Shown in pieces: positions 37,587-51,797 of a DNA stretch of 64,000 nucleotides (positions are counted from its first letter, which is position 1; each line of letters starts with the position of its first letter). The position numbers and the translations under genes are program-made. Source of the stretch: a virus; UHGV virus genome UHGV-1366603; one strand, written 5' to 3'. The notes beneath the pieces were generated by a model, which did not search any database, had not been told where the DNA came from, and saw nothing but the letters and a program-made list of their open reading frames with translations.

Positions 37587-38466
37587 TGTCAAAGTTTACG
37601 ACGGTAAACTCTCGACGGTAACACTTAATGCGATGCGTCTGGCTACCGCATTAATTACCGGTGCCGATGTGCAATACCCACAGAAGTCCACACTGAATGA
37701 GTTTTATAAGCTCATGCAAACCCCAGTGCCGGACGGTAAAGCACGTCCCCATTTGCAGTACATGGCGATTGGTAACCGTGGCCACATGGTCGACACATCA
37801 GACGTTGTTGCTGATGTTGTTCCTGTAGCTAAAGAACCTATCGCGTCCGGGATGTTTTCACGCGTTCCGTTTGTCCTGCGTACTAAAGACAACGATTTGT
37901 CTGATGAACAGCGTAAGAACTACGCTTTCCGTACTCTGGAAACCATCAACAAACGTGAGTATTGGGCGTACTACTTAAAACGCATTGACATGCGTGCAGT
38001 AAAAACTACCGACTACGACATTAAGCGTGAGAACGGTGTTGAAACTGTAGAAGACTTTGTCTATACGGATACTGAACTGAACCCGGTACCGAAAGTGTTA
38101 CCGGACTACGATTACGACGATGACGGTACCGTTGCAATTCCTGACGGCCGTTATGTGGAATCAGGCGCAGACCTGGTTATTCCGTGGACGGACTTTGACG
38201 TTCAGGAGTACATGAACGTGACCAGCATTATGCGCGGTAGCCCTCGTAGTTCGATTATCTCTGAACTGGCACTGTGCTCTGGTTTAGACCAAGTAACGTC
38301 TGGTGACTCTGCCACAGGTTCGAAGTTCAGCTACACTGAAGCTATCGGTGTACAAGCCCTGTATTACATTTCGATGTTTACTAACCTGGCGCAGACGAAC
38401 GATAAACTGTCACTGACAATCCGTATCGGTCAACCTGCACCGTTCTTCTTAGGGACAGCGAATTAA
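37579..38466 (+). CDS. hypothetical protein (295 aa)
   Basis: GGAGA RBS, 8-nt overlap with upstream gene. Confidence 0.8.
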   Translation: MSNVKVYDGKLSTVTLNAMRLATALITGADVQYPQKSTLNEFYKLMQTPVPDGKARPHLQYMAIGNRGHMVDTSDVVADVVPVAKEPIASGMFSRVPFVLRTKDNDLSDEQRKNYAFRTLETINKREYWAYYLKRIDMRAVKTTDYDIKRENGVETVEDFVYTDTELNPVPKVLPDYDYDDDGTVAIPDGRYVESGADLVIPWTDFDVQEYMNVTSIMRGSPRSSIISELALCSGLDQVTSGDSATGSKFSYTEAIGVQALYYISMFTNLAQTNDKLSLTIRIGQPAPFFLGTAN

Positions 38467-39110
38467 TGTTGATTCCTGAGCCGAGACTTCCCGATAAAAT
38501 GGTCAGGATCGCGGCGATAGACCCCGGTACGAGCCATCTCGGGATGGCGGTGCTGGATTGGGAATATGGCAGCGACCAAGCCGAAGTGGTGTGGGCTGAT
38601 ACCATGCACGTATTAGACCCAACACATCCAAGTGCGTTTGCAGAGTGTGTCGGTAAACGCGACGATCGCTTAGTAAAACTCGAAGCGTGCTACCGTGAGT
38701 TTCTTCGGATTGCGCGTCCGACGTTTGTTGCAACAGAAACGCCGTTTATGCGGCGGGCAAAACTCTCCGCGTATGAGTCTGGCGTAGAGTTACAGCTGAT
38801 GTTAAGACGGGCGTTATGGGACGTGTTTCCAGAGAAAGTCTTACACGGGTTCAATCCGATTATTGTAAAATCATTCGTTGGTGTGGAAGCGAAAGGAACG
38901 GACAAAACAGATATGTTTCGTGCCGTAACGAAGTTGTATCGCGACCACGCGTTGTTTGACATTACAACGTTGGATGAGCACAGTATCGATGCCGTGGCGG
39001 TGGGGAATATCTTTGTCAGGGTAAACCTGTTAAACTTGAATAGTCTCCTACCGCCAAAACAAAAGTCTGCTAAGACAGCAAAACGGCGGAGAAGACGTCG
39101 GAGGAAATAG
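38466..39110 (+). CDS. putative RuvC-like Holliday-junction resolvase/endonuclease with poly-Arg C-terminal tail
   Basis: N-terminal VRIAAIDPGTSHLGMAVLD (RuvC IDPG motif), internal ETPF and DEHSIDAVAVG acidic motifs, C-terminal KRRRRRRRK. Confidence 0.55.
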   Translation: MLIPEPRLPDKMVRIAAIDPGTSHLGMAVLDWEYGSDQAEVVWADTMHVLDPTHPSAFAECVGKRDDRLVKLEACYREFLRIARPTFVATETPFMRRAKLSAYESGVELQLMLRRALWDVFPEKVLHGFNPIIVKSFVGVEAKGTDKTDMFRAVTKLYRDHALFDITTLDEHSIDAVAVGNIFVRVNLLNLNSLLPPKQKSAKTAKRRRRRRRK

Positions 39111-39693: not shown

Positions 39694-39735
39694 CCAACCT
39701 CTACCTTCGGGTAGAGGTTTTCTTCTTTTTATTTT
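39694..39735 (+). terminator. intrinsic terminator (UUCG tetraloop)
   Basis: AACCTCTACC-TTCG-GGTAGAGGTT then T-rich tail. Confidence 0.85.
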
Positions 39736-39779: not shown

Positions 39780-40433
39780 ATGGAACCACTACGTTTAATG
39801 ACCAGAACGCTACTGATTCCTATCTGGGAATTGAAGCTTGCCCCATTGCCTGCCTCTAATGGGGAGGTCATTGATTTTATTAAAGACGAAGAATTCGTGT
39901 TGACGGCTTTCCAGGAGACGCTGCATCGTTATTATAATGCAGTGCCTTTATCTGGCGGATTAGATTGCCCTGGTGTAGAAGGGAGTACGTCTGCGTTAAT
40001 TGCAGAGTATTTAGAACAGAAAGGAATCGGGGTTGGGAAAGGTCGGGTTTATGTGGACGTCGATAAACTGAAGAGTTATCAGATTGAGCTGACGTTTCAG
40101 ATAAGAAAATTACTTACTCGCTACGGTCTTTTCTCGATTAACTGTAAGGTTGATGACGTACGGATGTTAGACCACGGTTTTACCACCGCCCTCAAAACTT
40201 GTCGCGGTAAAAGATTCGTACAATTTGCGTGGTGGGTACCAGTATTGCGTGGTGAGAGAAAAACGGTGGAGGGGTTGTACGGCTGGGCGCTATGGAGCGA
40301 AGTTCCAGTAAATAAACTCGATGCGGTTATTCCAAAGCACCGAAACGTTCCGCTTAGCAGTTTATTTACTTCCGGCGAGAACACTACGTGGGCTGAATTC
40401 GTTAATAACGTTATGTCAATTGGGGAACAATGA
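39780..40433 (+). CDS. hypothetical protein (217 aa)
   Basis: AAGGAGAC RBS; first gene of accessory block. Confidence 0.8.
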   Translation: MEPLRLMTRTLLIPIWELKLAPLPASNGEVIDFIKDEEFVLTAFQETLHRYYNAVPLSGGLDCPGVEGSTSALIAEYLEQKGIGVGKGRVYVDVDKLKSYQIELTFQIRKLLTRYGLFSINCKVDDVRMLDHGFTTALKTCRGKRFVQFAWWVPVLRGERKTVEGLYGWALWSEVPVNKLDAVIPKHRNVPLSSLFTSGENTTWAEFVNNVMSIGEQ

Positions 40434-40909
40434 TGCAGCAATTAGATATTACTGAAGACAAAATCTCCGCTAAATTTCCACAATTACGCGAATACATTAA
40501 GGACTTAAACTCGATACGCGAAACACCTGTTCGTATTACGTTAGCGATAGAAGACGATATTACGCACGGTATTGCGATTTGGGAACCGGGCAATCTTATC
40601 TATCTGGTGGTAGCAGAAGGTTCTCGTCGTTTCGGCGTGGGTTCGTTCTTATTGCAGTACGTTCAGTTGAATTCCGATCGTCAAATGGTGACGTGTCGTG
40701 TCCACCCTTCGAACATTGACGGCCTGTGTTTCTTTTCGAAAAAAGGCTACCAGATTGACCGTTGGTATATCGCCAGCGACTCTCGTCGGTATTTTCGTAT
40801 GACGAACGGTAACGTTGTTTCGTCATACGCCCCGCCGGAAGAAGGATATTTGGTGGATTTTATCGAAAACACGCCCATCTTTCTCTCTGTTGCGGATAAA
40901 ATTTATTAA
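40430..40909 (+). CDS. GNAT-family acetyltransferase (159 aa)
   Basis: GNAT motif A-like LVVAEGSRRFGVGSFLL; ATGA coupling to upstream gene. Confidence 0.6.
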   Translation: MMQQLDITEDKISAKFPQLREYIKDLNSIRETPVRITLAIEDDITHGIAIWEPGNLIYLVVAEGSRRFGVGSFLLQYVQLNSDRQMVTCRVHPSNIDGLCFFSKKGYQIDRWYIASDSRRYFRMTNGNVVSSYAPPEEGYLVDFIENTPIFLSVADKIY

Positions 40910-40925
40910 CCGTTGAGAGTCTAAA

Positions 40926-41402
40926 ATGATACGTGTCGAATATGAGACGCGGTGCTTAGAAGACAATCGAGCAAAAGCATTACGTTGTGTTGAAATCGTC
41001 CCCGAACACGAACTGGATATTCAAGCTGGTAAGGTTCGGGGCGTTCCGGTTAAGATCGTACAACATAGCCATTGTTCGCAATATAAAGAGAAAGCTGTCC
41101 CAGTAGTACGTTCCAGTAAACGAGAAGACTTTTCAGAACTCCGTAAGTGTTTTCAACGACACTACCGCCGGAGTAAATGGAAAGTGTTGGTATTAATGTT
41201 AGTCGACGATTTCATTAAAGACCTGGTTTGGGAAGAAGTGCTTAAAGAGCGTGGTTTTCAACCCAAACCGTTCTCGTATCACTGGGAACGTTTCAAAAAG
41301 AAATACCACGAGTCATTGCGTTGGTCTCCGAACACCCGGAATATGATGCCGCGTTTAGAGTCAATGTCTTGGCTTCGTGTTTATCTCGATGAGGTAAACT
41401 GA
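40926..41402 (+). CDS. hypothetical protein (158 aa)
   Basis: ORF; stop overlaps next start. Confidence 0.7.
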   Translation: MIRVEYETRCLEDNRAKALRCVEIVPEHELDIQAGKVRGVPVKIVQHSHCSQYKEKAVPVVRSSKREDFSELRKCFQRHYRRSKWKVLVLMLVDDFIKDLVWEEVLKERGFQPKPFSYHWERFKKKYHESLRWSPNTRNMMPRLESMSWLRVYLDEVN

Positions 41403-41791
41403 TGAAACGTTTTATTACTCCATTTCTAATGTTACTTTCGTTTTCTGTATTAGCGGATTTTAAACCTTACGATATCAGTCGTTACGAACCTGCTGTTCCT
41501 GGCGATAAACCGGTTGTGTTTAAAGCAGACGACCAACCCGTCACTGCGGTTCAAAACGATGAGTTTGCAGTGGTGAATTACGGCAAAACGGACTTATGCC
41601 CTGCGGGTGGATTTTATCTGGTGAACATCAAACGTCGAACTTATCAGTTTGTTGATCCGGGTAGCTGCTCTGCAATGGTTAAGGTGACGTTAGAAACCGT
41701 ACCTTACACGAATAAAAACATTAATATACAACGTTTAACCTTTTATGCGGGTGATGAAATCACAGCACGTTATCCGTTATACGGGTATTAG
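41402..41791 (+). CDS. secreted/periplasmic protein (129 aa) with N-terminal signal peptide
   Basis: MKRFITPFLMLLSFSVLA signal-like N-terminus; two Cys pairs. Confidence 0.7.
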   Translation: MKRFITPFLMLLSFSVLADFKPYDISRYEPAVPGDKPVVFKADDQPVTAVQNDEFAVVNYGKTDLCPAGGFYLVNIKRRTYQFVDPGSCSAMVKVTLETVPYTNKNINIQRLTFYAGDEITARYPLYGY

Positions 41792-41814
41792 TGATTAGCC
41801 CCCACGGAGTTCGT

Positions 41815-42453
41815 ATGTCTTTTGTAATTGATTTCGACGTTGGCCACAGACAGAACTTACTTAATCTCGTTAGTTATTGTAACAGTGACAGTGTACGGAA
41901 AAAGCTTTCGGCTGAAAAGGTAGACGTTACGCTCGTCGGTGCCCCAACACCGGAAGGACGCTATAAGGTAAAGTTAACGAACCGTAACGACATAAACGAT
42001 GCGGTACTGATTACCTACACAAAGCTTCAACTGAACGACTTCCTTGAGATTCCTGCCAAGTATCTGGATTGGTTTGATTTCGAAAACGGTCAACCTAAGA
42101 ACTACGATACGTGGGCAGCTTCCGCTAAAGTCGCTGTAGAGAAAATGTGCCAAGACCGAGGTATGGTGATATCGCGCGCTTGGGACACCGGTTCACAGTG
42201 TCACATTGAGTTTGACGAGTCTATCGAACGCTATGTGGTTGTTTACGAGTGCGACTCTTTTATTTATAGTGCGAGAAACCGATTCATCTTACCTCTACAC
42301 TTAGGGCAGGTGATTAACGACACGACATTAGACGGTCTTGATTACAATAACGAACTGAACAAGAAACCATTGGCGGATTTGGACGGTGAGTTAGAAGTGT
42401 GGATGGGTCAGGCGTTGGTTGAGACAGTCGTCTTAAGCGGCCTGGAAATGTAG
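41815..42453 (+). CDS. hypothetical protein (212 aa; track gives GTG start 41791)
   Basis: ATG preceded by GGAG RBS. Confidence 0.7.
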   Translation: MSFVIDFDVGHRQNLLNLVSYCNSDSVRKKLSAEKVDVTLVGAPTPEGRYKVKLTNRNDINDAVLITYTKLQLNDFLEIPAKYLDWFDFENGQPKNYDTWAASAKVAVEKMCQDRGMVISRAWDTGSQCHIEFDESIERYVVVYECDSFIYSARNRFILPLHLGQVINDTTLDGLDYNNELNKKPLADLDGELEVWMGQALVETVVLSGLEM

Positions 42454-42465
42454 TAGTAACGGTGG

Positions 42466-42506
42466 GTAGAGAGAGCTTTCGGGCTCTCTCTACTTTTCTT
42501 TTTTTT
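42466..42506 (+). terminator. intrinsic terminator
   Basis: GTAGAGAGAGC-TTTCGG-GCTCTCTCTAC followed by T-run. Confidence 0.9.
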
Positions 42507-42535
42507 CATTAACGACGGTCTTTATGGAGGTGACC

Positions 42536-43090
42536 ATGAAAGAATATAAAATCGCGATCATCGGGTCTCGAGAAACACCGGAAGACGTTATGCAGGAAAT
42601 GTTGGAAACGTTACGGGAAGGGTTTCGAATCTTACGAAAGAAAGGCTACACGATTACCACCCGTTCTGGAGGATGTTATAAAGGCCCAGACCAACTTCAG
42701 TTCATGTTAGCACGCACCGAGGACGTTAAGAGCGTTTGTTACCTGCCGGATGAAAAGAAAATGTGGCTAGGGAAAATACACCCTAAAGTAGAGTTCCGTT
42801 ATATCCCACAAGACGTGCAGTACCGAGCAGTTGTTGCTTCACTCCACCCAAACCCAGATAAGCTCTCACCGATTGCCTGGGCGTTACACGGTCGTAATCT
42901 GAATATCATCTCAGGTGACCGTTTAGACGAACCGGTAGACGCAGTGTATTATTTCAGCGACCACGACAAACACGGAAACGCAAAGGGTGGTACTGCGATG
43001 GGTGTAAAATACGCGAAGTCAGTCGACGTTCCTTGTTACTACCATACCGCCGATCGAGATAAGTGGTTGGAAAGTCTTCGTTTATTATGA
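42536..43090 (+). CDS. SLOG/DprA-like Rossmann-fold protein (184 aa)
   Basis: KIAIIGSRE…TITTRSGGCYKGPDQ resembles DprA/Smf and SLOG-family glycine-rich motifs; GGAGGTG RBS. Confidence 0.5.
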   Translation: MKEYKIAIIGSRETPEDVMQEMLETLREGFRILRKKGYTITTRSGGCYKGPDQLQFMLARTEDVKSVCYLPDEKKMWLGKIHPKVEFRYIPQDVQYRAVVASLHPNPDKLSPIAWALHGRNLNIISGDRLDEPVDAVYYFSDHDKHGNAKGGTAMGVKYAKSVDVPCYYHTADRDKWLESLRLL

Positions 43091-43240
43091 ACTTGACTTT
43101 AACCGCTTTACAAAGGGAATCCCGATAAGCGTCGTAGTTGAGTTCAGCGATTCGCCGTGCGATGGGAACAGAAGTTACTGCGTATCCGACAGCAGGGTGA
43201 ACTGGGTAAAAGTAAGATCAAAGCAAACGAGTAAATTATC

Positions 43241-44374
43241 ATGTCAACGTTAGATAGCGACTTAGAAGTGCTTTGTGACGATTACGACCGACTCGTAGCG
43301 TTAGAATCCATTGGAGTAAAAGATAATTATCCGGCTATCGTTGCTATCCGTAAACGTTGGCTTTTGGATGATGTGGTTGTTGCGTCAGAGTCTTCGGCCA
43401 TGATGCACCGCGCACAGTTTTTGTCAGACACGGAACCTGATAAAGGGATAGGCAAAGCGGCTGCGCGACTCACCGGACGTGCTGTTCGTGGCGTCAGTCG
43501 GGTAGCAGGCCGTGCTGCCAGTGCAGGTGCAAAAGCATCAGCGAACTTTGCAGGTAAACATTCCAAACAGCTTGCTTTACGTTTTGTGGACTTTGCTGAG
43601 GCTGCGGGTAAAGAAGTCATTAAGGAATTAAAAGAAGCGACGTCTAAAGCGACGACCTTAGAGCGCAAACTGCAAAAGTTAAATGCACGTCTAAGTTTAA
43701 TCGGTGACAAAGACACCTTAAAACCGGTTGACTGCGACACGGGAAGCTGGACGACCAAAGTTTGTTTAGAAGACAAACCTAATGTAAAAGCGTGTATTGA
43801 GTTCAGTAAGAACCTGAACGCAATGGATGCGATGGTCAACGATTATACCGTTAAAACGCGTACTATTCTCGGTAAGAGTAAGAAAGTTACTGAGAGTGGT
43901 TTGGAGAGAGTAGGTCGGTCAACGAACTGGGCGATTAAACGTAGTGCAGGGTTGTTCGGTATTATCGATCCGTTTAAAACGGTGAAAGCGTATCCGTGGC
44001 CAGGTAACGTGGTGGTCGTTGAACACGACAACGGTAAGATTGAGTGGGCGATTGCCCGTGATGGTGATTTTGGCCACACAATCAAATCTCTGAACTTACA
44101 CGAAATCGGTTCAGCTCTCGAAGCCGTTGAAAAAATTATCCGTGCTTTACGTCAGCGTGGTACGAAGCGTCGTAGTGTTGGTTATACCGGTATTTACGAT
44201 GAAATTCAGCGAATGAAAAAAGAATTGAAATCGTTAGACGGTCGTGAATTACGTGACGCTACCGTTCGGTATAAAAACGCACTGCGTTTAGAAGATGCGT
44301 TTACTACCTCGTTAGTGCGTGTTGCGGAAGGCTTACTGGAATGGTGCAGGTTGTCGCTGATTGAGGTTAAATAA
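43241..44374 (+). CDS. hypothetical protein (377 aa), Ala/Arg-rich N-terminal region
   Basis: ORF; TAATG coupling to downstream GNAT. Confidence 0.75.
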   Translation: MSTLDSDLEVLCDDYDRLVALESIGVKDNYPAIVAIRKRWLLDDVVVASESSAMMHRAQFLSDTEPDKGIGKAAARLTGRAVRGVSRVAGRAASAGAKASANFAGKHSKQLALRFVDFAEAAGKEVIKELKEATSKATTLERKLQKLNARLSLIGDKDTLKPVDCDTGSWTTKVCLEDKPNVKACIEFSKNLNAMDAMVNDYTVKTRTILGKSKKVTESGLERVGRSTNWAIKRSAGLFGIIDPFKTVKAYPWPGNVVVVEHDNGKIEWAIARDGDFGHTIKSLNLHEIGSALEAVEKIIRALRQRGTKRRSVGYTGIYDEIQRMKKELKSLDGRELRDATVRYKNALRLEDAFTTSLVRVAEGLLEWCRLSLIEVK

Positions 44375-44841
44375 TGCGTATCACTATTATTCTCAAACCC
44401 GACAGTAAATACGGAAAGTTATACGGCGACCAGGTACTCAAACTGCACAACATGTTGTTCGCAGAAGAGAAAGTGCGTATTAGTCAGTTAACTGGACGTG
44501 ACACGTTCAACCCCATCGAACGTTTAGAAGAGATTTGGCCTCAAGATTATCTCTGTGCTTGTGCGGTGGGTGACAACGAACAGCTTCTGGGATTTATGAC
44601 GTTCTCATTGGGTTCTTGCTCAAAAGACACGTTTGTTTACATCGGGAATTACTATGTGATTCCTGAAGCACGCTCTCAAGGGGTAGGGCGTGCGCTTATG
44701 GACAAAGTCCGTGAATACGGAAAGTCTAAAGGTTGTGGTTGGATGAGTCTGGATGTGTTAGACAACAACGTTAAAGCTATCTCCTTGTATGAGAAAATGG
44801 GATTCCGTACCGAATGCAGGGAAATGATAAAGGAAATCTAA
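44374..44841 (+). CDS. GNAT-family N-acetyltransferase (155 aa)
   Basis: Classic GNAT motifs YVIPEARSQGVGRALMDKV and AISLYEKMGF. Confidence 0.8.
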   Translation: MRITIILKPDSKYGKLYGDQVLKLHNMLFAEEKVRISQLTGRDTFNPIERLEEIWPQDYLCACAVGDNEQLLGFMTFSLGSCSKDTFVYIGNYYVIPEARSQGVGRALMDKVREYGKSKGCGWMSLDVLDNNVKAISLYEKMGFRTECREMIKEI

Positions 44842-44842
44842 A

Positions 44843-45475
44843 ATGGCTGCAAGATTCGTACCGTTTCATGACGGGTCTAGATATACTTTTGGTGTAGAGC
44901 GTTACGCTGTGGGTTTTCGTCCTGGTTGGAGAGTGGTACGAATCGATAAAGCGTGTTGGTGTTTACCGACCGGCATTTTTGATTACTTTACGCCTGAAGC
45001 TTTAACGCGGTTTGTTTCTCTGGGTTCTCCCACGCAACGTGCTGCGTGGGAAAAGAATATTCGTTGCCGTTATTTGGGTAAAACACGAAACGCGACGGTA
45101 CGCGGTGTTTATCACGTAGGAAGCCGTTGGTTACACGTTGAGCCAACACATCTCCGTTGTGCCGTCACGCCCTTTAACGGTGAATATCGCGGTCAGGTGT
45201 ACACTGGGTTACATTTTGCGTTCCCGGATAACCCTGACCTTAATTATTTTCTGGCTACCCCGAAAGACGTTACATTAGCCACGTTCTATAAATACCTTTT
45301 GTTCTATCCTGCGTACGTCGTTGCAGAATACGAACACAAAGCATTTCCTCTACCTTACGGTAGAGACAGGAGATTAGCAGGATGTTCTATCGAGAACTTC
45401 AGCAATACACCGACGCTCTCCGAAAAGCGACCATTGATGCTCACAACAACCTCAGAGATGTCGTTAGCGTTATAG
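44843..45475 (+). CDS. hypothetical protein (210 aa)
   Basis: ORF beginning 2 nt after GNAT stop; 3' end overlaps next ORF by 94 nt. Confidence 0.6.
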   Translation: MAARFVPFHDGSRYTFGVERYAVGFRPGWRVVRIDKACWCLPTGIFDYFTPEALTRFVSLGSPTQRAAWEKNIRCRYLGKTRNATVRGVYHVGSRWLHVEPTHLRCAVTPFNGEYRGQVYTGLHFAFPDNPDLNYFLATPKDVTLATFYKYLLFYPAYVVAEYEHKAFPLPYGRDRRLAGCSIENFSNTPTLSEKRPLMLTTTSEMSLAL

Positions 45476-45753
45476 AACAGTGTTCGGATGTATTGTATGC
45501 GGAAACGATTGAAACGCCAACCCGCGACGGTGTGAAATCGCTCCAGCTACACGTTTGTAGTAAACACGGCAGTCTGTCGTTAAACTTCCGTGTAGGTTTA
45601 GATTATTACATGGTTCGTAAGAGCTATTTAAGTTGTGACGGTGACCTCTATCCGGTTGTCTGGAACAACGATTATTCTAAGTTTGTTTATCCACTTGAAG
45701 AACACCGACGCACGGTTTATGAATTTGTGAAAGCTGTTCTCGAGGGGTTCTAA
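45382..45753 (+). CDS. hypothetical protein (123 aa)
   Basis: ORF with AGGAG RBS. Confidence 0.6.
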   Translation: MFYRELQQYTDALRKATIDAHNNLRDVVSVIEQCSDVLYAETIETPTRDGVKSLQLHVCSKHGSLSLNFRVGLDYYMVRKSYLSCDGDLYPVVWNNDYSKFVYPLEEHRRTVYEFVKAVLEGF

Positions 45754-45766
45754 AGAGGGTATTGTG

Positions 45767-46372
45767 ATGTCAGAGATGATTCTCGACTCATTACTGCTGA
45801 TTACGGTGGCGTATATCAACAAAACCGGTAAGCTACCAAAGCGTGGGGTGACGATTGAACGGGAGGGGTTTAAGCACCGCTACCCGTTAACGAAAGTTCT
45901 CGATTTGGCAGCGCGGTTAGCGAAGATGCGTAGACCGACGTCAGACGCAGCACCGAAGTACGTCTTAGTGGTACTCCAACGTGCGATTTCTGAAGTCCGT
46001 CGTGCGCGTCGTCGTGCCTCGTTTCGCTTTTATCCAAACTCTACGCAACAGGTTGTGGGGGTCTATAACGAAATGGTTGTTGATTTACGTGCCGAACGCT
46101 GTAACGTTACAGGACTTGCGTATAACCGCCTCAAACGCATTCTGGACGACTCAGACGCGTTTACCACACCGCAAGAAGGTCAAGCGGCTTTAGCGCTTCT
46201 ACGAGGCGCTGAGCTCGTTATTGTGGACACCGCAGTACAGGCCGCAAGAATGCAGCACTATCTTGCTAAGCAAGGGTTAGTTTTACTGTGTGTACCGTCT
46301 GCACAGACTGCTAATCTTACCGCACCGGAAACGTCAGAAGTGTGGAGTGGTCCGATTGTTGACCATCAATAA
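45767..46372 (+). CDS. hypothetical protein (201 aa)
   Basis: ATG after AGAGGG RBS (track GTG 45764). Confidence 0.7.
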   Translation: MSEMILDSLLLITVAYINKTGKLPKRGVTIEREGFKHRYPLTKVLDLAARLAKMRRPTSDAAPKYVLVVLQRAISEVRRARRRASFRFYPNSTQQVVGVYNEMVVDLRAERCNVTGLAYNRLKRILDDSDAFTTPQEGQAALALLRGAELVIVDTAVQAARMQHYLAKQGLVLLCVPSAQTANLTAPETSEVWSGPIVDHQ

Positions 46373-46379
46373 AACCTTA

Positions 46380-46416
46380 CCCCTACCTATCGGTAGGGGC
46401 GGGTTTCTTTTTTATC
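46380..46416 (+). terminator. intrinsic terminator
   Basis: CCCCTACC-TATCG-GGTAGGGG then T-run. Confidence 0.85.
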
Positions 46417-46510
46417 CTAAAATTTATTACAACCAATAGCTATTATGTGAACGCCGGTATGGAATAAAGAAGTATCGGTTTAAATTTTTGTGCGTAAAGG
46501 TAAAACGATA

Positions 46511-47134
46511 ATGCTTAAGACAGTGTCTATTGATGGCCCTGACTTTTCTGGGAAATCGACGTTGTGCAAAATGGTAAAAGGTATGCTGGAATCTGCGGGG
46601 TTAAAGGTCTGCATCCGTAATCACCCTACGACGGAGACCGAAGCGGGTATCCGCGCACGCAGTTTAGTCATTCAGTCCGCAGCAAAAGCAAAAATTGCCG
46701 AAGCGATGTGCGACGATTTCCTCCACACGTTAGACCATGTTGTTGACGATTACGATGTTGTTATTTTCGACAGGTTCTGTCCCTCTACAGTCGTTTACCA
46801 GGGTGTCGACGGTAAAGACGAAGTTTTCCGACGTAAGCTAACGCGTCATTTCCACGCACCAGATTTGTACGTTTGGACAGATGTGGATTACGACGGCGCA
46901 GTAGCACGCTTTAAGAAACGGGTAGAAGAACAAGGTAAGAATTGGGACGATGAGGTTCTTACCGTTAAGTATTTAAAAGACAACCAAAGTTGGGAAGCGT
47001 TACGTGACCACTACCGCTTCGCCCACCACATTCTCACTGAAGGCGGTTGTCTACACCATTTATTACCCGTGAAGCAAGACGACGATTACCGGTTAAAAGC
47101 GGCTGAAATCGTTGCTTGTATTTTAGAGAATTAA
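46511..47134 (+). CDS. tmk: thymidylate (dNMP) kinase-like P-loop kinase
   Basis: P-loop GPDFSGKST and DRF.PSTVVYQG matching E. coli Tmk DRH.LSTQAYQG (from memory); start set at ATG 46511 (track GTG 46490). Confidence 0.75.
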   Translation: MLKTVSIDGPDFSGKSTLCKMVKGMLESAGLKVCIRNHPTTETEAGIRARSLVIQSAAKAKIAEAMCDDFLHTLDHVVDDYDVVIFDRFCPSTVVYQGVDGKDEVFRRKLTRHFHAPDLYVWTDVDYDGAVARFKKRVEEQGKNWDDEVLTVKYLKDNQSWEALRDHYRFAHHILTEGGCLHHLLPVKQDDDYRLKAAEIVACILEN

Positions 47135-47141
47135 TCACATA

Positions 47142-47176
47142 CCCCTACCTTCGGGTAGGGGGTTATTTAATTTTTT
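47142..47176 (+). terminator. intrinsic terminator (UUCG tetraloop)
   Basis: CCCCTACC-TTCG-GGTAGGGG then T-run; same stem as terminator 46380. Confidence 0.85.
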
Positions 47177-47206
47177 CTCAGATAGATATTACCTTAGTGA
47201 GATTAC
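47177..47206 (+). promoter_or_regulatory. promoter-like motif copy 2 (CTCAGATAGATATTACCTTAGTGAGATTAC)
   Basis: Identical 30-mer to 12323-12352; same 46-nt spacing to ATG and similar leader. Confidence 0.55.
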
Positions 47207-47252
47207 ACAATAACCTCTTTACGACTTGTTCTACAGATTAGGATTAATTACC

Positions 47253-47612
47253 ATGACTTATAATCACAACTCTATTGTTTTAGCAAAACGTAAATTCGGT
47301 CTTCATCTTTCTTACGTGATTCGTCATTTGACAGCGAAAGACATTACACAGCGTGAACTTGCCCAGCTTGCGAAAGTTTCACAATCGGTTATTTCATCTA
47401 TTAAGAACGATCGTAGCGAACGCCTGAGTCTACCGATAATGATGAAGGTTGCTGATGCAGTTCGTCTGAAATACCAGATTACGTTTAATTCCATTAAAGG
47501 GCGTTGCTCAGTAACGGTTCACGTAGAGTCTGCGTTGGACTACGTTGCAAATACGTCCCTTAAACGTACCGCGAAGAATATTCGTTTTGTTACTAACAGC
47601 GCAACACACTAA
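47253..47612 (+). CDS. helix-turn-helix (XRE/Cro-like) DNA-binding protein (119 aa)
   Basis: HTH-like segment ITQRELAQLAKVSQSVISSIKN; ATG after TTAGGA RBS (track TTG 47226). Confidence 0.6.
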   Translation: MTYNHNSIVLAKRKFGLHLSYVIRHLTAKDITQRELAQLAKVSQSVISSIKNDRSERLSLPIMMKVADAVRLKYQITFNSIKGRCSVTVHVESALDYVANTSLKRTAKNIRFVTNSATH

Positions 47613-47633
47613 CCAACCTAAAGGAGTAATATC

Positions 47634-48317
47634 ATGGCACCGAGAACTAAGAAAACCGAAGTTAAAGAAACTGTAGAAAAGCCGACTGATAATAAGGAAG
47701 CGGAAGTTAAGCAGACTGGGCCTAACAAGAAACTTGTGCTTATGTCACCCGCCACAGAAATACACGGGGATAAAATCTTAAGTTACACTCCGCGCGCGAG
47801 TTTAACGATCGATATTTACCATTACCCGGTATTCGACCTGTACACGCTTGTCTGTCGACTCGACGATGAGATACTGGCAGTCGTTCCAGGTATCCACAAA
47901 GAAAAACTGCTTACGGGTTCAGTCATTAGCGAGATTTTCCTGCGCTTGATGTTTAAATCAGACGATAAGATGATCAGCCAGATTGCTAGTAAATTGACTG
48001 ACTTCTTTGTTGAGGCTTCAACGTGGTTAGGCTTTCACCCAACGGCTTATTTCGTTTTCGACACCAAAATGTTGTATGCTGAAATGGGCGATAGCGTTAA
48101 ATATCCTATCTTGCTTAATGAAGAAGTCGTTCCTTTTTCCCTTACCAGTCCTAACAAACATCTTCGCTTTCATCCGGCGTTAGAAAGCCTGATTGAATAC
48201 AATCGGTTGGAAAAATATTACGCTTATCATCGCATGTTCTTTGAACTTCTGCGTGATAAATTAAGAGGCAAAGTTCCAGATTCTAGTGCAGCATTCACTA
48301 GTTCTAAGCTTTGGTAG
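47634..48317 (+). CDS. hypothetical protein (227 aa)
   Basis: ORF with AAGGAG RBS. Confidence 0.75.
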   Translation: MAPRTKKTEVKETVEKPTDNKEAEVKQTGPNKKLVLMSPATEIHGDKILSYTPRASLTIDIYHYPVFDLYTLVCRLDDEILAVVPGIHKEKLLTGSVISEIFLRLMFKSDDKMISQIASKLTDFFVEASTWLGFHPTAYFVFDTKMLYAEMGDSVKYPILLNEEVVPFSLTSPNKHLRFHPALESLIEYNRLEKYYAYHRMFFELLRDKLRGKVPDSSAAFTSSKLW

Positions 48318-48330
48318 TTTGTAACAAACA

Positions 48331-48358
48331 GGGAGCTTCGGCTCCCTTTTTCTTTTTA
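48331..48358 (+). terminator. intrinsic terminator (UUCG tetraloop)
   Basis: GGGAGC-TTCG-GCTCCC followed by T-run. Confidence 0.85.
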
Positions 48359-48403
48359 CAACTTTTTCTTTTGTTGTGAGGAAAGCCGATAAGGAGTATT
48401 AAA

Positions 48404-49390
48404 ATGGTATATCGTAAAACGATAGAAAGAACCTCTTCTGATTTAACCGTAGGACGCTTAACCCGTAGAGATATTCGCAATCCTCAACTTCAGGCATGTT
48501 TAACGGGCCCTAACGGTGCGGTGATTCGTGAAGCACTGTGCAATACTGAGCTGAATACGTTCTCTTTACAAAAAGGAAAAACAATCCAAGGGTTTATCAT
48601 CACAAAACACATTTACGGTGATCCAACGTTACACTGCTTGTATATGCATGAAATTGTACCTGGGTGTTTGAACAAACTGAGCCTTCTATTGGTACTTGAC
48701 TATACTGGGTTTACGTACCTTAACCGAATTGCCAGGGGCGTGGAAGAAATCGCTGAGCTTAACGATTTAGGGTTTAGACATACCCACACAGCATATCGTT
48801 TAGGTACGCGTAAGCTACTGGATGTCACTTTACCGACGAACGTGAAGAACGTCTCCGGCGACTTCTATAAAGACTTAACCAGAGCACAACGTGAACAGCT
48901 CATGACGTTGTTTGGCACTAGCGTCGTTGAAAACATCAATGCTGACCCTGTAACGCGTTCTCGACAAATAATGCCGCAAGTTGAAACATTGGTGGAATTA
49001 GCGCGGCACGTCAATCACTACACTTACGTTTGGATGGACGGTAATGACGTTGTGGGTGTGGTGCAAGTTAAATCACGCAATCTTAGCGAGTGCGAACTAA
49101 AAGCCATTGCGGTAAGTGAATCACACCGGGGCCGTGGGATTGGGCGTGCGTTGTTGTACCGTGCTTTACAGATTGCTTCGACAACAGCAGCACCGTTAGA
49201 AATAGGCTGTTACAATAACAACCCAGCATTTAGACACCTGGCTGTAGATTTGTTTAAATTCCGTCCCTACGAGTACGAATTTGTTTTAGTGCGCGACGAC
49301 GATGTCGTCAGTTGGGAGCGTCGGAAAAACCGCGTCGAGTTAGTGTTAGGCGACGAAATGTCATCGTTACAAGGCGGAATTAATGCATAA
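48404..49390 (+). CDS. GNAT-domain protein (328 aa), C-terminal acetyltransferase domain, possibly tandem GNAT
   Basis: C-terminal AIAVSESHRGRGIGRALLYRALQ GNAT motif; AAGGAG RBS. Confidence 0.65.
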   Translation: MVYRKTIERTSSDLTVGRLTRRDIRNPQLQACLTGPNGAVIREALCNTELNTFSLQKGKTIQGFIITKHIYGDPTLHCLYMHEIVPGCLNKLSLLLVLDYTGFTYLNRIARGVEEIAELNDLGFRHTHTAYRLGTRKLLDVTLPTNVKNVSGDFYKDLTRAQREQLMTLFGTSVVENINADPVTRSRQIMPQVETLVELARHVNHYTYVWMDGNDVVGVVQVKSRNLSECELKAIAVSESHRGRGIGRALLYRALQIASTTAAPLEIGCYNNNPAFRHLAVDLFKFRPYEYEFVLVRDDDVVSWERRKNRVELVLGDEMSSLQGGINA

Positions 49391-50198
49391 ACCAATTATA
49401 AAGTGGATGGGTGGTAAATCACGGATTATCGACACCTTACTACAAGTCTTACCTGAACGTACAACATTCGTTGAACCGTTTGTTGGTGCAGGGTCGGTGT
49501 TTTTGAACACACGTTATAAACGTTACATTCTTGCTGACTCTAACCCCGATTTAATACAGTTGCTGAATGTGGCGAAAGACCAACCTGAAGAACTTATCTT
49601 AAAGTCGAAACCACTATTCGAAGACGGTAACGATTGTATTAAGTATATGGAACGCCGTGAGTTGTTTAATCGCGAAACGGATATGGCTCCGTTAGACCGG
49701 GCAGCAATGTTTCTGTACTTAATGCGTCACGGTTTTAACGGGATGTGTCGTTACAACGGCAGCGGGGGTTTTAACGTTCCGTTTGGTCGCTATCCTAACG
49801 GTGTGTATTACCCGTTAGACGAGATTCGTGGTTGGGCTAAACGTTGTCAAGAACCGGAATACTTAGAAATTGTTTGTGAAGATTTCCGAACAGTTTTAGA
49901 GCGTACACCGGAAGAGAGTGTGATTTACGCAGACCCGCCTTATATACCGCTCTCAGAGACCGCTAAACACGCCCAATACCATCGGAAGGAGTTTTCCCAG
50001 GCTGACCATCGAGAACTCGCCAGAGCGCTGTTTAAGCAGGTTGAGAGGGGGAATAGCGTTGTGTTGTCCAATGCAGATACGTTACTAACGCGTGAGATTT
50101 ATTACGGGTTCGAATGGCGTTCTGTGGAAGTAGGGCGATACATGGGTGCGTCAGGTGCTGCCCGTAAAACGGTAACGGAATTGTTAGGAGTGCTCTAA
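49383..50198 (+). CDS. dam: DNA adenine methyltransferase (Dam, GATC N6-adenine MTase)
   Basis: IKWMGGKSR, VEPFVGAGSVFLNT, YILADSNPDLI, FNGMCRYNG.GGFNVPFGRY, DPPYIPLS, all matching E. coli Dam from memory. Confidence 0.9.
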   Translation: MHKPIIKWMGGKSRIIDTLLQVLPERTTFVEPFVGAGSVFLNTRYKRYILADSNPDLIQLLNVAKDQPEELILKSKPLFEDGNDCIKYMERRELFNRETDMAPLDRAAMFLYLMRHGFNGMCRYNGSGGFNVPFGRYPNGVYYPLDEIRGWAKRCQEPEYLEIVCEDFRTVLERTPEESVIYADPPYIPLSETAKHAQYHRKEFSQADHRELARALFKQVERGNSVVLSNADTLLTREIYYGFEWRSVEVGRYMGASGAARKTVTELLGVL

Positions 50199-50971
50199 TG
50201 CGTATAGTGGATATCCACGATTATCGTAATGACCATTTAGCGATTGGTGTCGATGGGAAAATGGTTTCGTTAACCCGCGTACGCAAAGGGTTAATGGAAA
50301 AGGAGATCATTCGGGAGTCCGAAGACCCTACCTTTATCATCCTTTCGAACACTAATCAGTTACAGGGCATCTTTTCAGGGCGTGCTGACGGTAAGATTTT
50401 CTATATGTCCGCAATCGTTGTGTTTGCGAAGAAGAACATTAACTTCGCCCAACTCAAACGTTTGTTAAACGTGAAGATGTTTGATGTCACCTACCCTGCT
50501 AATGACCTAAAACGTCGTGATCAGTTAATGACGTTTTTAGGTATGCAACCAACGTCTATCGATTACGACCTTACGATTACTGAGAAGCCGGAAGTGCGCA
50601 CTGACTTACCTGACGTAGACGATGTTGAATCCTTAACGTTAGAAGAGACGTTTACGATTCCTAAGGTTGTTAATGTCAACCTGGACACGCATTGTTTAGG
50701 GTTGTTAGCCGTAGGTGCAGCAGAAGGGTTGTGTTGTCGTAAAGACGGTAAGGTTGAAGGTATCTTAGTCTATTCGAAAATCAACGAAAAGACGTTTGCC
50801 ACTGAAGGCTTTTTCTATAACGATTGCACTTACGGAAACGCACTACTAACCACGTATTTCCGTATTGCTTATCTGAAAGGCGCAACTGTACGCCTCACGT
50901 TTCCATACACAGCCCCACCGTCTATGGGTGGAGTTGAGGTAGAACCATTAACCGGCCACTTTATCTTTTAA
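50198..50971 (+). CDS. hypothetical protein (257 aa)
   Basis: TAATG coupling to Dam. Confidence 0.75.
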   Translation: MRIVDIHDYRNDHLAIGVDGKMVSLTRVRKGLMEKEIIRESEDPTFIILSNTNQLQGIFSGRADGKIFYMSAIVVFAKKNINFAQLKRLLNVKMFDVTYPANDLKRRDQLMTFLGMQPTSIDYDLTITEKPEVRTDLPDVDDVESLTLEETFTIPKVVNVNLDTHCLGLLAVGAAEGLCCRKDGKVEGILVYSKINEKTFATEGFFYNDCTYGNALLTTYFRIAYLKGATVRLTFPYTAPPSMGGVEVEPLTGHFIF

Positions 50972-50980
50972 GGATGATGA

Positions 50981-51208
50981 ATGGAAATCAAACGTATTGT
51001 AACCAAAAACAAACAGATTGTTTACGTCGCAGGCGATAACGAATTCTCGGCGGTAATCAACAGCGAAAATGCGCTCATTATCGGTTATCCGGGTAAAGTT
51101 ATTACGCGCAGTCACCAACGTGTGATTGACAAACTTATCGCAAAAGCGAAAGCGCGTGACGGTGTTGGTTCAGTACAAACCCACACGGGGTTAACGCTGG
51201 CCCTCTAG
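50981..51208 (+). CDS. hypothetical protein (75 aa)
   Basis: ORF with AAGGA RBS. Confidence 0.6.
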   Translation: MEIKRIVTKNKQIVYVAGDNEFSAVINSENALIIGYPGKVITRSHQRVIDKLIAKAKARDGVGSVQTHTGLTLAL

Positions 51209-51247
51209 TCAGCAGGTAATATGACCTCTTAACTGGAGACTTTAATA

Positions 51248-51754
51248 ATGAGTGAGACTCTGGATTTTAATCAGCTCGAACAACACGATTTCGACCTCGG
51301 TGTTCGTGATATCGATGCTGATCATGAAACACGTTGTAAAGAGCTGTTTAACCGTTACGGTCAGCTCATCACCGGTGCCTCTGACGACACCGAATTCAGT
51401 TTAGATGAGTTTGAAAAAGTTCTGTCGTGTTTTATCACTGACTGTCTGGCGAAGAAAGCGTTGCTGGTCGAACTGAACTTAGACTCCGTCGAACCTACTG
51501 ATGCTCACGCCGTGTTGAAAGAGTCCATTATCCCAACTGATGAGATTATGGACACGGTAGCCGGTATTCGCGGTACGTTTGAAACTGCCGTAGAAGAATA
51601 CACGGAACAGCTTCGTGAATCAGGACTGACGTTGTGTGCGCCAGCAGGTGAGCCATTACCGTCCGACGAAGAAACTGAAGAAGCGCGTAGTCGCTTAGCG
51701 CGTTATGTTATTACGTCTATCTTGGTAGATGATCGCGAAGAGAATCTGCTATAA
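51248..51754 (+). CDS. strongly acidic protein (168 aa), candidate DNA mimic
   Basis: GGAGACTT RBS; very high Asp/Glu content. Confidence 0.7.
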   Translation: MSETLDFNQLEQHDFDLGVRDIDADHETRCKELFNRYGQLITGASDDTEFSLDEFEKVLSCFITDCLAKKALLVELNLDSVEPTDAHAVLKESIIPTDEIMDTVAGIRGTFETAVEEYTEQLRESGLTLCAPAGEPLPSDEETEEARSRLARYVITSILVDDREENLL

Positions 51755-51757
51755 GCT

Positions 51758-51797
51758 GCCCCTCTCTCCGTTTGGAGAGAGGGTGTATTTATTTTTA
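51758..51797 (+). terminator. intrinsic terminator
   Basis: GCCCCTCTCTCC-GTTT-GGAGAGAGGG then T-rich tail. Confidence 0.85.

Follow-up and report, generated by a model that had tools for sequence, protein, structure and literature searches.

The question raised by this locus is what a phage does with three acetyltransferase genes of the GNAT superfamily, and what their products might acetylate. The locus lies in a 64,000-nucleotide stretch of the viral genome UHGV-1366603, here called the window. An original prediction made from its letters alone had marked three open reading frames (ORFs) as GNATs, one of them possibly with two GNAT domains, and in their order along the plus strand we name them GNAT1, GNAT2, and GNAT3 (Table 1). 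The predicted coordinates are exact and the quoted motifs are present. The reading that we moderately favor is that GNAT2 is a polyamine acetyltransferase packaged in the phage head, GNAT3 is a tandem GNAT, and GNAT1 is a single-domain GNAT, with the three having diverged long ago. The existence of the genes, their GNAT homology, orthology and synteny, their domain architecture, and their junctions were established in the present analysis; spermidine acetylation, head packaging, and a crystal structure come from experiments on orthologs, and from these we infer the same behavior for the window proteins.

Each of the three proteins matches GNAT-superfamily profiles, has the beta1-alpha1-alpha2-beta2-beta3-beta4-alpha3-beta5-alpha4-beta6 fold, and carries one Q/RxxGxG/A motif (motif A) at the beta4-alpha3 junction: R66-G71 (RRFGVG) in GNAT1, R100-G105 (RSQGVG) in GNAT2, and R242-G247 (RGRGIG) in GNAT3. 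Motif A is conserved across the orthologs of all three and is missing from the N-terminal domain of GNAT3. The Pfam, PHROG, and PDB matches are far beyond chance, and these are genuine GNAT genes. An explanation by chance motifs in products that do not bind acetyl-coenzyme A (acetyl-CoA) could draw on GNAT1, which taken alone falls under the Pfam gathering score (19.9 bits versus 27), but many GNAT1 orthologs do match Pfam. GNAT-profile E-values of 1e-12 to 1e-69, an ortholog crystallized under the name acetyltransferase, and confidently predicted GNAT folds already refute this explanation, and we give it practically no weight. Acetyl transfer by the three window proteins themselves would be expected by analogy; acetyltransferase activity has been seen only in two orthologs of GNAT2, those of phiEaH2 and Caitlin.

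We found no pairwise BLAST similarity among the three proteins, and their homology is visible at the profile level only, so a recent paralogy was rejected. By this comparison the three GNATs are ancient, independent lineages and not recent duplicates. Such strong mutual divergence fits different acceptors, and to this extent the earlier suggestion of diversified acetylation targets holds up, while the toxin-type and Rim-type comparators that it named found no support.

At the nucleotide level, a megablast search with the 40-50 kb part of the window against 50,697 phage records returned no match. The proteins encoded across the region are collinear with those of Salmonella phage SPN3US (Seoulvirus) and of the Erwinia phages Asesino, phiEaH2, Caitlin, and Kwan. 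Among the other large ORFs of the window are matches to this group's major head protein, virion structural and tail proteins, DnaB-like helicase, and polymerase. Judged from these matches, the window is distantly related to the SPN3US/Asesino/phiEaH2 jumbo phages and is new at the DNA level. Its nearest relative is a metagenomic scaffold of 225 kb (L006) with identical gene order. In the numbering of SPN3US (JN641803), GNAT1 corresponds to gp88, the gene 5' of GNAT2 to gp94, GNAT2 to gp95, GNAT3 to gp104, and the Dam methylase gene that follows it to gp105. By gene order and orthology the GNAT trio is conserved in synteny across the SPN3US-like jumbo phages (Seoulvirus, Erskinevirus, Machinavirus, and Wellingtonvirus). 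Since gp88, gp95, and gp104 are already annotated as acetyltransferases in the SPN3US records, and the window GNATs are ~29-67% identical to genes annotated in SPN3US-like phages, the trio itself adds little, being divergent versions of known genes. A partial copy of GNAT3, 97% identical, occurs in an NCBI contig of 1.2 kb deposited as Escherichia coli, which is probably phage DNA inside a bacterial assembly. This deposit suggests an enterobacterial host for the phage lineage.

The case for GNAT2 begins with its relatives. GNAT2 matches PF00583 at 8.8e-19 (68.3 bits; gathering score 20.7), and the closest solved structures by sequence are SSAT2/thialysine acetyltransferase (5.4e-10), nourseothricin acetyltransferase (9.6e-10), and the polyamine acetyltransferase DpA (9e-7). 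Syntenic orthologs are found in phiEaH2 (YP_007237670, 49% identity), Caitlin (YP_009292176, 45%), and SPN3US (gp95, YP_009153389, 47%), and all three stand directly 3' of an internal head protein gene, as in the window. The phiEaH2 and Caitlin proteins agree with GNAT2 in length (154-155 aa) and in 53 invariant positions that include motif A and the motif-B tyrosine Y139. Li et al. (PNAS 2023, PMC9992855) tested phage candidates for spermidine acetyltransferase by expressing them in E. coli BL21 delta-speG, where the phiEaH2 and Caitlin proteins made N-acetylspermidine. GNAT2 resembles these two enzymes in synteny, length, and invariant positions, although identity is just 45-49%, and its role is predicted from orthologs. 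By profile score GNAT2 is outside the bacterial SpeG/PaiA families, with 25.4 bits against the PaiA model NF053587 (cut-off 250) and SpeG not among the NCBIfam matches listed, though its function may resemble theirs. Taken with the data on packaging below, GNAT2 is probably a polyamine N-acetyltransferase carried in the head.

Packaging of the SPN3US ortholog was found by Scheuch et al. (Viruses 2023, PMC10052503, Tables S2/S6), who by mass spectrometry assigned gp95 to the head. Peptide-spectrum matches for gp95 numbered 39, 38, and 46 in virions (mean 41) and 29, 29, and 39 in tailless heads (mean 32), giving a normalized head/wild-type ratio of 1.11. Its N-terminus was intact and uncut by the prohead protease, and no function was listed (PMC10052503). 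The neighboring products gp94 and gp97 are likewise head proteins in SPN3US (PMC10052503). The same neighbors are present in the window, where the gene preceding GNAT2 matches both PF12699 (6.3e-8) and PHROG 2497 (4.5e-74), and this gp94-type gene together with a gp97-type 123-aa ORF places GNAT2 within a small head-protein module. In all relatives examined, the GNAT2 gene and the internal head protein gene are tightly linked. Head location was measured for SPN3US gp95, whereas for GNAT2 it is predicted here from orthology and the stop/start overlap. By analogy, GNAT2 is most likely co-translated with the internal head protein, packaged in the capsid, and active as a polyamine N-acetyltransferase upon meeting host acetyl-CoA. 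In this scheme the stop/start overlap would couple the synthesis of GNAT2 to that of the internal head protein, the packaged enzyme would presumably enter the cell along with the DNA, and once there it would N-acetylate spermidine or related polyamines with host acetyl-CoA, inactivating them from the onset of infection.

The joining of two papers is where the value of this reading lies, since spermidine acetylation in the Erwinia phages and head packaging without an assigned function in SPN3US turn out to concern one ortholog group. If both properties hold in one phage, the protein would be an injected polyamine-inactivating enzyme, which would resolve the timing puzzle that Li et al. (PMC9992855) posed over the presence of such an acetyltransferase in lytic phages. 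This joined picture of a packaged acetyltransferase concerns the relatives and not the window phage.

Some features of processing sites in this module can be added. The N-terminus of the window's internal head protein keeps A-L-E at residues 20-22 (LVALES) and A-S-E at ~48-50, and both tripeptides conform to the A-X-E motif recognized in SPN3US by the prohead protease gp245, whose cleavage of gp94 at ALE-22 was proposed. GNAT2 itself carries AEE at aa 30-32, which is missing from SPN3US gp95.

GNAT3 differs from the other two in its architecture. It matches PF00583 at 5e-12 (46.6 bits; gathering score 20.7), only residues 198-279 match GNAT profiles, and its N-terminal 147 residues have no Pfam match. 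An AlphaFold 2 (AF2) model built on an 11-sequence alignment from two homolog searches is confident (predicted local distance difference test, pLDDT, 82.8; predicted template-modeling score, pTM, 0.76) and contains two domains, each with the GNAT order of elements. Thus, the possible tandem organization that had been proposed for the larger protein is borne out in the model, in which GNAT3 is two GNAT-fold domains in one polypeptide. A tandem repeat could not be recovered by sequence, as BLASTP of the N-half against the C-half was empty, and the duplication is visible in structure only. In Foldseek searches, 194-219 residues of the model align to the tandem GNATs MshD (1OZP), Legionella VipF (6WQB), 3TT2, and MAB_4324 (7Q3A); identity of GNAT3 to these and to clavulanate Orf14 (2WPW) is 8-18%. 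GNAT3 falls outside the MshD equivalog family (TIGR03448, 22.9 bits versus a cut-off of 163.1) and has additional conserved N- and C-terminal tails.

The N-terminal domain of MshD still binds acetyl-CoA, whereas in GNAT3 the CoA loop is wholly lost from this domain. The C-terminal domain of GNAT3 retains the acetyl-CoA pyrophosphate loop and is likely the catalytic one, while the N-terminal domain, keeping the fold without the loop, would probably help to bind the acceptor or act as a scaffold in the manner of MshD-type tandem GNATs. GNAT3 would be a non-virion protein, as is SPN3US gp104 (PMC10052503). The tandem-GNAT label is an annotation upgrade for gp104-type proteins across the phage group. 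Both tails of GNAT3 are modeled with low confidence (aa 1-11 and aa 304-328, the latter at 49313-49390), and the C-terminal residues S303, W304, R306, N309, R310, Q323, and G325 are invariant from the window to SPN3US. The C-terminal tail may serve in interaction or targeting.

GNAT1 shares 58% identity with SPN3US gp88, a protein with a sequence 100% identical to that of PDB 7DQG ("Crystal structure of Salmonella phage acetyltransferase"). GNAT1 matches 7DQG at 4.8e-61 and PHROG 7861 "acetyltransferase" at 5e-69. The two proteins are syntenic orthologs of equal length that share motif A (SRRxGVG) and an invariant C-terminal tail, but they differ by 42% in sequence, and 7DQG gives fold and not function. 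No acceptor, published biochemistry, or structure paper for 7DQG was found in the searchable literature. The GNAT1 family profile retrieved only GNATs from the PDB (3LD2 at 1e-4, then YjaB, NATA1, and GNAT8), and over the GNAT core it aligned to the GNAT2 family profile with 93.9% probability (hhalign, E=1.6e-7). Within the GNAT1 family, R66 and G69 of motif A are invariant, as is a C-terminal extension (RYFRMTN...PEE..L...PIFLS.A, aa 120-155) outside the canonical GNAT core. All listed Foldseek matches to the GNAT1 model are GNAT-type acyltransferases (Ard1, AAC(3), AAC(6'), RimI). SPN3US gp88 was not detected in virions by mass spectrometry (PMC10052503), and GNAT1 would be a compact, non-virion, single-domain GNAT with an intact motif A.

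A number of observations weigh against the reading we favor. In the E. coli assay of Li et al., the SPN3US protein YP_009153389 yielded no N-acetylspermidine (PMC9992855); spermidine may not be the conserved physiological acceptor, or the SPN3US protein may have been poorly expressed. GNAT2 is no nearer to the active orthologs (45-49% identity) than to this inactive one (47%). At 8 positions SPN3US alone deviates from the two active enzymes and Asesino, and GNAT2 sides with the active enzymes at 4 of these (I6, D10, D110, and D130; SPN3US has N, E, and G in place of the three aspartates) and is unlike both groups at the remaining 4, which is at best a weak indication of activity in GNAT2. The packaging of GNAT2 is extrapolated from the gp95 data and the stop/start overlap, and ejection is presumed for gp95 as much as for GNAT2. 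None of the three GNATs reaches the cut-off of any NCBIfam equivalog model, those for SpeG/PaiA, RimI, AAC(6'), and MshD included. At the motif-B position, GNAT2 has tyrosine, GNAT1 has an invariant phenylalanine, and the window lineage of GNAT3 has alanine where SPN3US-type orthologs and the homologue P0015 have the canonical tyrosine; judging from these residues, catalysis may be unusual or weak in GNAT1 and GNAT3. The AF2 model of GNAT1 is of moderate quality (pLDDT 69.9, poor at aa 90-107, TM 0.57 to 7DQG), and the true structure may differ from it at the weak region, for example by strand exchange or dimerization. Finally, tblastn found no counterpart of GNAT3 at the syntenic locus in either Asesino or phiEaH2, which indicates that GNAT3 is dispensable in part of the group.

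The negative spermidine assay leads to a rival to which we give a smaller, though still appreciable, weight. Here GNAT2 would be packaged and ejected, but its true target would be a macromolecule, such as a host protein located where the phage enters, or internal head or ejection proteins of the phage itself, with the activity on spermidine being promiscuous. SSAT-like GNATs are often promiscuous, the SPN3US ortholog is in the head yet inactive on spermidine in vivo, and the link to the internal head protein gene is as tight as described above. However, the spermidine-active orthologs come from two different genera, and the closest solved relatives act on diamines, polyamines, and aminoglycosides rather than proteins. 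The capsid is presumably without acetyl-CoA, so self-modification of head proteins there would be unlikely.

A further explanation, closer to the original prediction, casts the three GNATs as a diversified set of host-takeover or toxin-like effectors, each with an upstream partner, that acetylate proteins or aminoacyl-tRNAs in the manner of AtaT/TacT toxins or Rim enzymes. These share the GNAT fold with the window proteins and have the single-domain size (~150-175 aa) of GNAT1 and GNAT2. RimI is the top NCBIfam model for GNAT2 and GNAT3, albeit below threshold, the negative assay of SPN3US gp95 (PMC9992855) leaves room for a different acceptor, and Rac-like or ribosomal-protein-type roles have been proposed for jumbo-phage GNATs in reviews (PMC7824862). 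The scores do not follow. Against the RimI model TIGR01575, GNAT1, GNAT2, and GNAT3 reach 16, 49, and 27.2 bits, all far below the cut-off of 86.4, and the Rim-type comparison fails. AtaT is a marginal structural match, ranking 38th at E=0.02 for GNAT1 and absent from the best 60 for GNAT3. What lies upstream is an uncharacterized 217-aa ORF for GNAT1, the internal head protein gene for GNAT2, and a terminator for GNAT3; no DUF1778 or ribbon-helix-helix (RHH) antitoxin domain was found there with Pfam, and PADLOC defense models matched none of the three. Spermidine is acetylated by two GNAT2 orthologs (PMC9992855). We regard the effector explanation as decidedly improbable.

The neighborhood of GNAT3 raises another alternative, namely that GNAT3 is tied to the Dam methylase and the 257-aa protein encoded after it, and that this module acts on DNA or nucleotides, for instance by acyl modification or as a regulator of methylation, instead of GNAT3 being a stand-alone acetyltransferase of small molecules or proteins. 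The 3' end of GNAT3 overlaps the Dam gene by 8 nt in the window and by 20 nt in L006, the order GNAT3, Dam, and PHROG 9941 protein is common to SPN3US and Kwan, and GNAT-superfamily DNA modifiers such as Mom occur in jumbo phages (PMC7824862). Yet Asesino and phiEaH2 retain the Dam and PHROG 9941 proteins without GNAT3, which shows that the link can be dispensed with; in SPN3US, gp104 and the Dam gene do not overlap and stand 30 nt apart, and Pfam, PHROG, and structure searches showed no similarity to Mom. We consider this alternative very improbable, and in the reading we prefer GNAT3 would be a tandem acetyltransferase that is first in its own transcription unit and linked in translation to the Dam methylase gene.

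The same neighborhood yields a lead on proteins hitherto called hypothetical. When the GNAT3 model was compared with predicted viral structures (BFVD) by Foldseek, GNAT3 orthologs came first (TM ~0.8), and the next matches were Kwan A0A1B2IE56 (276 aa, 8e-10) and phiEaH2 J7KKF1 (256 aa, 9.5e-9), followed by Kwan A0A1B2IE03 (215 aa, 9e-7), FemAB, and N-myristoyltransferases, the last two being double-GNAT folds. By organism and length, A0A1B2IE56 matches Kwan gp133, the product of the gene after Dam, while J7KKF1 is gp030 of phiEaH2 and orthologous to SPN3US gp107. Predicted structures of the gp106/gp133 family and of the gp107 type compare to the GNAT3 model with TMt 0.56-0.60. A0A1B2IE03 is Kwan gp127, from the gene block 5' of the Kwan GNAT3 ortholog, and it too has a GNAT3-like predicted fold. 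The 257-aa ORF of the window belongs to the gp106/gp133 family (BLAST E 1e-14 to 1e-19), has no Pfam, NCBIfam, or PDB match (the PDB profile search was empty), and contains no recognizable CoA motif; its hhalign alignment to GNAT3 is collinear and not significant. As a lead from these models, the 257-aa ORF possibly shares the double-GNAT fold of GNAT3 while lacking a CoA motif, and the models offer a similar fold hint for the neighboring "hypothetical" proteins of the group. The window is without the second, gp107-type paralog that is present in SPN3US, Asesino, and phiEaH2.

These threads can be drawn together in a bolder reading that we regard as unlikely, in which GNAT2 is a ready-made, capsid-delivered effector that inactivates a metabolite by acetylating host or DNA-bound spermidine at time zero, and the GNAT3-Dam-257-aa unit hides a small family of double GNATs that mostly no longer bind CoA and serve instead as non-enzymatic binders. 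If this were true, a local and transient depletion of polyamines would blunt spermidine-dependent host nucleases or CRISPR adaptation before phage gene expression. It would also explain why lytic jumbo phages have a spermidine acetyltransferase although phages need spermidine.

Table 1. Positions of the GNAT genes, their domains, and neighboring features in the window.
Feature	Position	Strand	Remarks
217-aa ORF	39780..40433	+	PHROG 8034; function unknown; first gene 3' of terminator-like hairpin; stop overlaps GNAT1 start
GNAT1, 159 aa	40430..40909	+	compact single-domain GNAT; SPN3US gp88 ortholog; motif A RRFGVG at 40625-40642
Internal head protein, phiKZ_IP family	43241..44374	+	SPN3US gp94 ortholog, 60% identity (tblastn); stop overlaps GNAT2 start
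GNAT2, 155 aa	44374..44841	+	single-domain GNAT; motif A RSQGVG at 44671-44688; motif-B tyrosine Y139
123-aa ORF	45382..45753	+	SPN3US gp97 ortholog, 44% identity (tblastn); PHROG 8535 at 6.9e-41
Terminator-like GC hairpin	48330..48347	+	AGGGAGC-TTCG-GCTCCCT, then TTTTTCTTTTT; between 227-aa ORF and GNAT3
GNAT3, 328 aa	48404..49390	+	tandem GNAT; SPN3US gp104 ortholog; own AAGGAG Shine-Dalgarno
GNAT3 N-terminal pseudo-GNAT domain	aa 14-133, 48443-48802	+	without CoA loop
GNAT3 C-terminal GNAT domain	aa 147-296, 48842-49291	+	motif A RGRGIG at 49127-49144
Dam-type N6-adenine DNA methyltransferase	49383..50198	+	PF02086 1.2e-57; PADLOC orphan methyltransferase 1.3e-86
257-aa ORF	50198..50971	+	PHROG 9941; SPN3US gp106 / Kwan gp133 ortholog

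Translational coupling of each GNAT to an upstream gene of unknown function had been proposed, and the junctions agree with this in part. The start of GNAT1 overlaps the stop of the 217-aa ORF (ATGA), a weak ortholog of SPN3US gp87 (26% identity, tblastn), as proposed. GNAT2 is also coupled (TAATG), but its upstream partner is the internal head protein gene. GNAT3 has no 5' coupling, being set off by an 86-nt spacer in which the GC hairpin and a T-run precede the Shine-Dalgarno sequence; the fold of this spacer (48318-48403) has a minimum free energy of -22.8 kcal/mol (z = -2.08). Terminator-like hairpins suggest transcription units at 39780-42453, 42524-46372, 46490-47134, 47226-48317, and 48404-51754, in which GNAT1 would be the second gene of the first unit, GNAT2 would lie inside the second, and GNAT3 would be the first gene of the last.

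GC hairpins, often with a TTCG tetraloop, and T-runs occur in nearly all intergenic gaps on the plus strand (39696-39719, 42464-42495, 46380-46399, 47142-47161, 48330-48347, and 51760-51783). A T-rich stretch ending in TTAC follows several of them at a distance of ~10-40 nt (for example at 39730, 46423, 47180, 48355, and 51791), and from their position these stretches might be promoters for a phage RNA polymerase right behind the terminators. A scan for sigma-70 promoters gave a background level of sites (20 seen versus 18.6 expected), which is unsurprising since this phage group has its own RNA polymerases.

The 227-aa ORF that adjoins GNAT3 on its 5' side (47634-48317, plus strand) is an orphan, without a PHROG or Pfam match and without a tblastn match in SPN3US, Asesino, phiEaH2, or Caitlin. 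These four phages have a similar-sized ORF (~215 aa) at this position. Kwan gp127 and SPN3US gp103 were considered as homologues of the 227-aa ORF, and neither tblastn nor a BLAST network gave a sequence link. Two further ORFs lie near GNAT1 on the plus strand. On its 3' side, a 129-aa ORF (41402-41791) has a signal-peptide-like N-terminus (MKRFITPFLMLLSFSVLA), and its product may be exported. At 38466-39110, a 214-aa ORF occupies the slot annotated in Kwan as a RuvC-type crossover junction endonuclease and ends in an arginine- and lysine-rich C-terminus (KRRRRRRRK).

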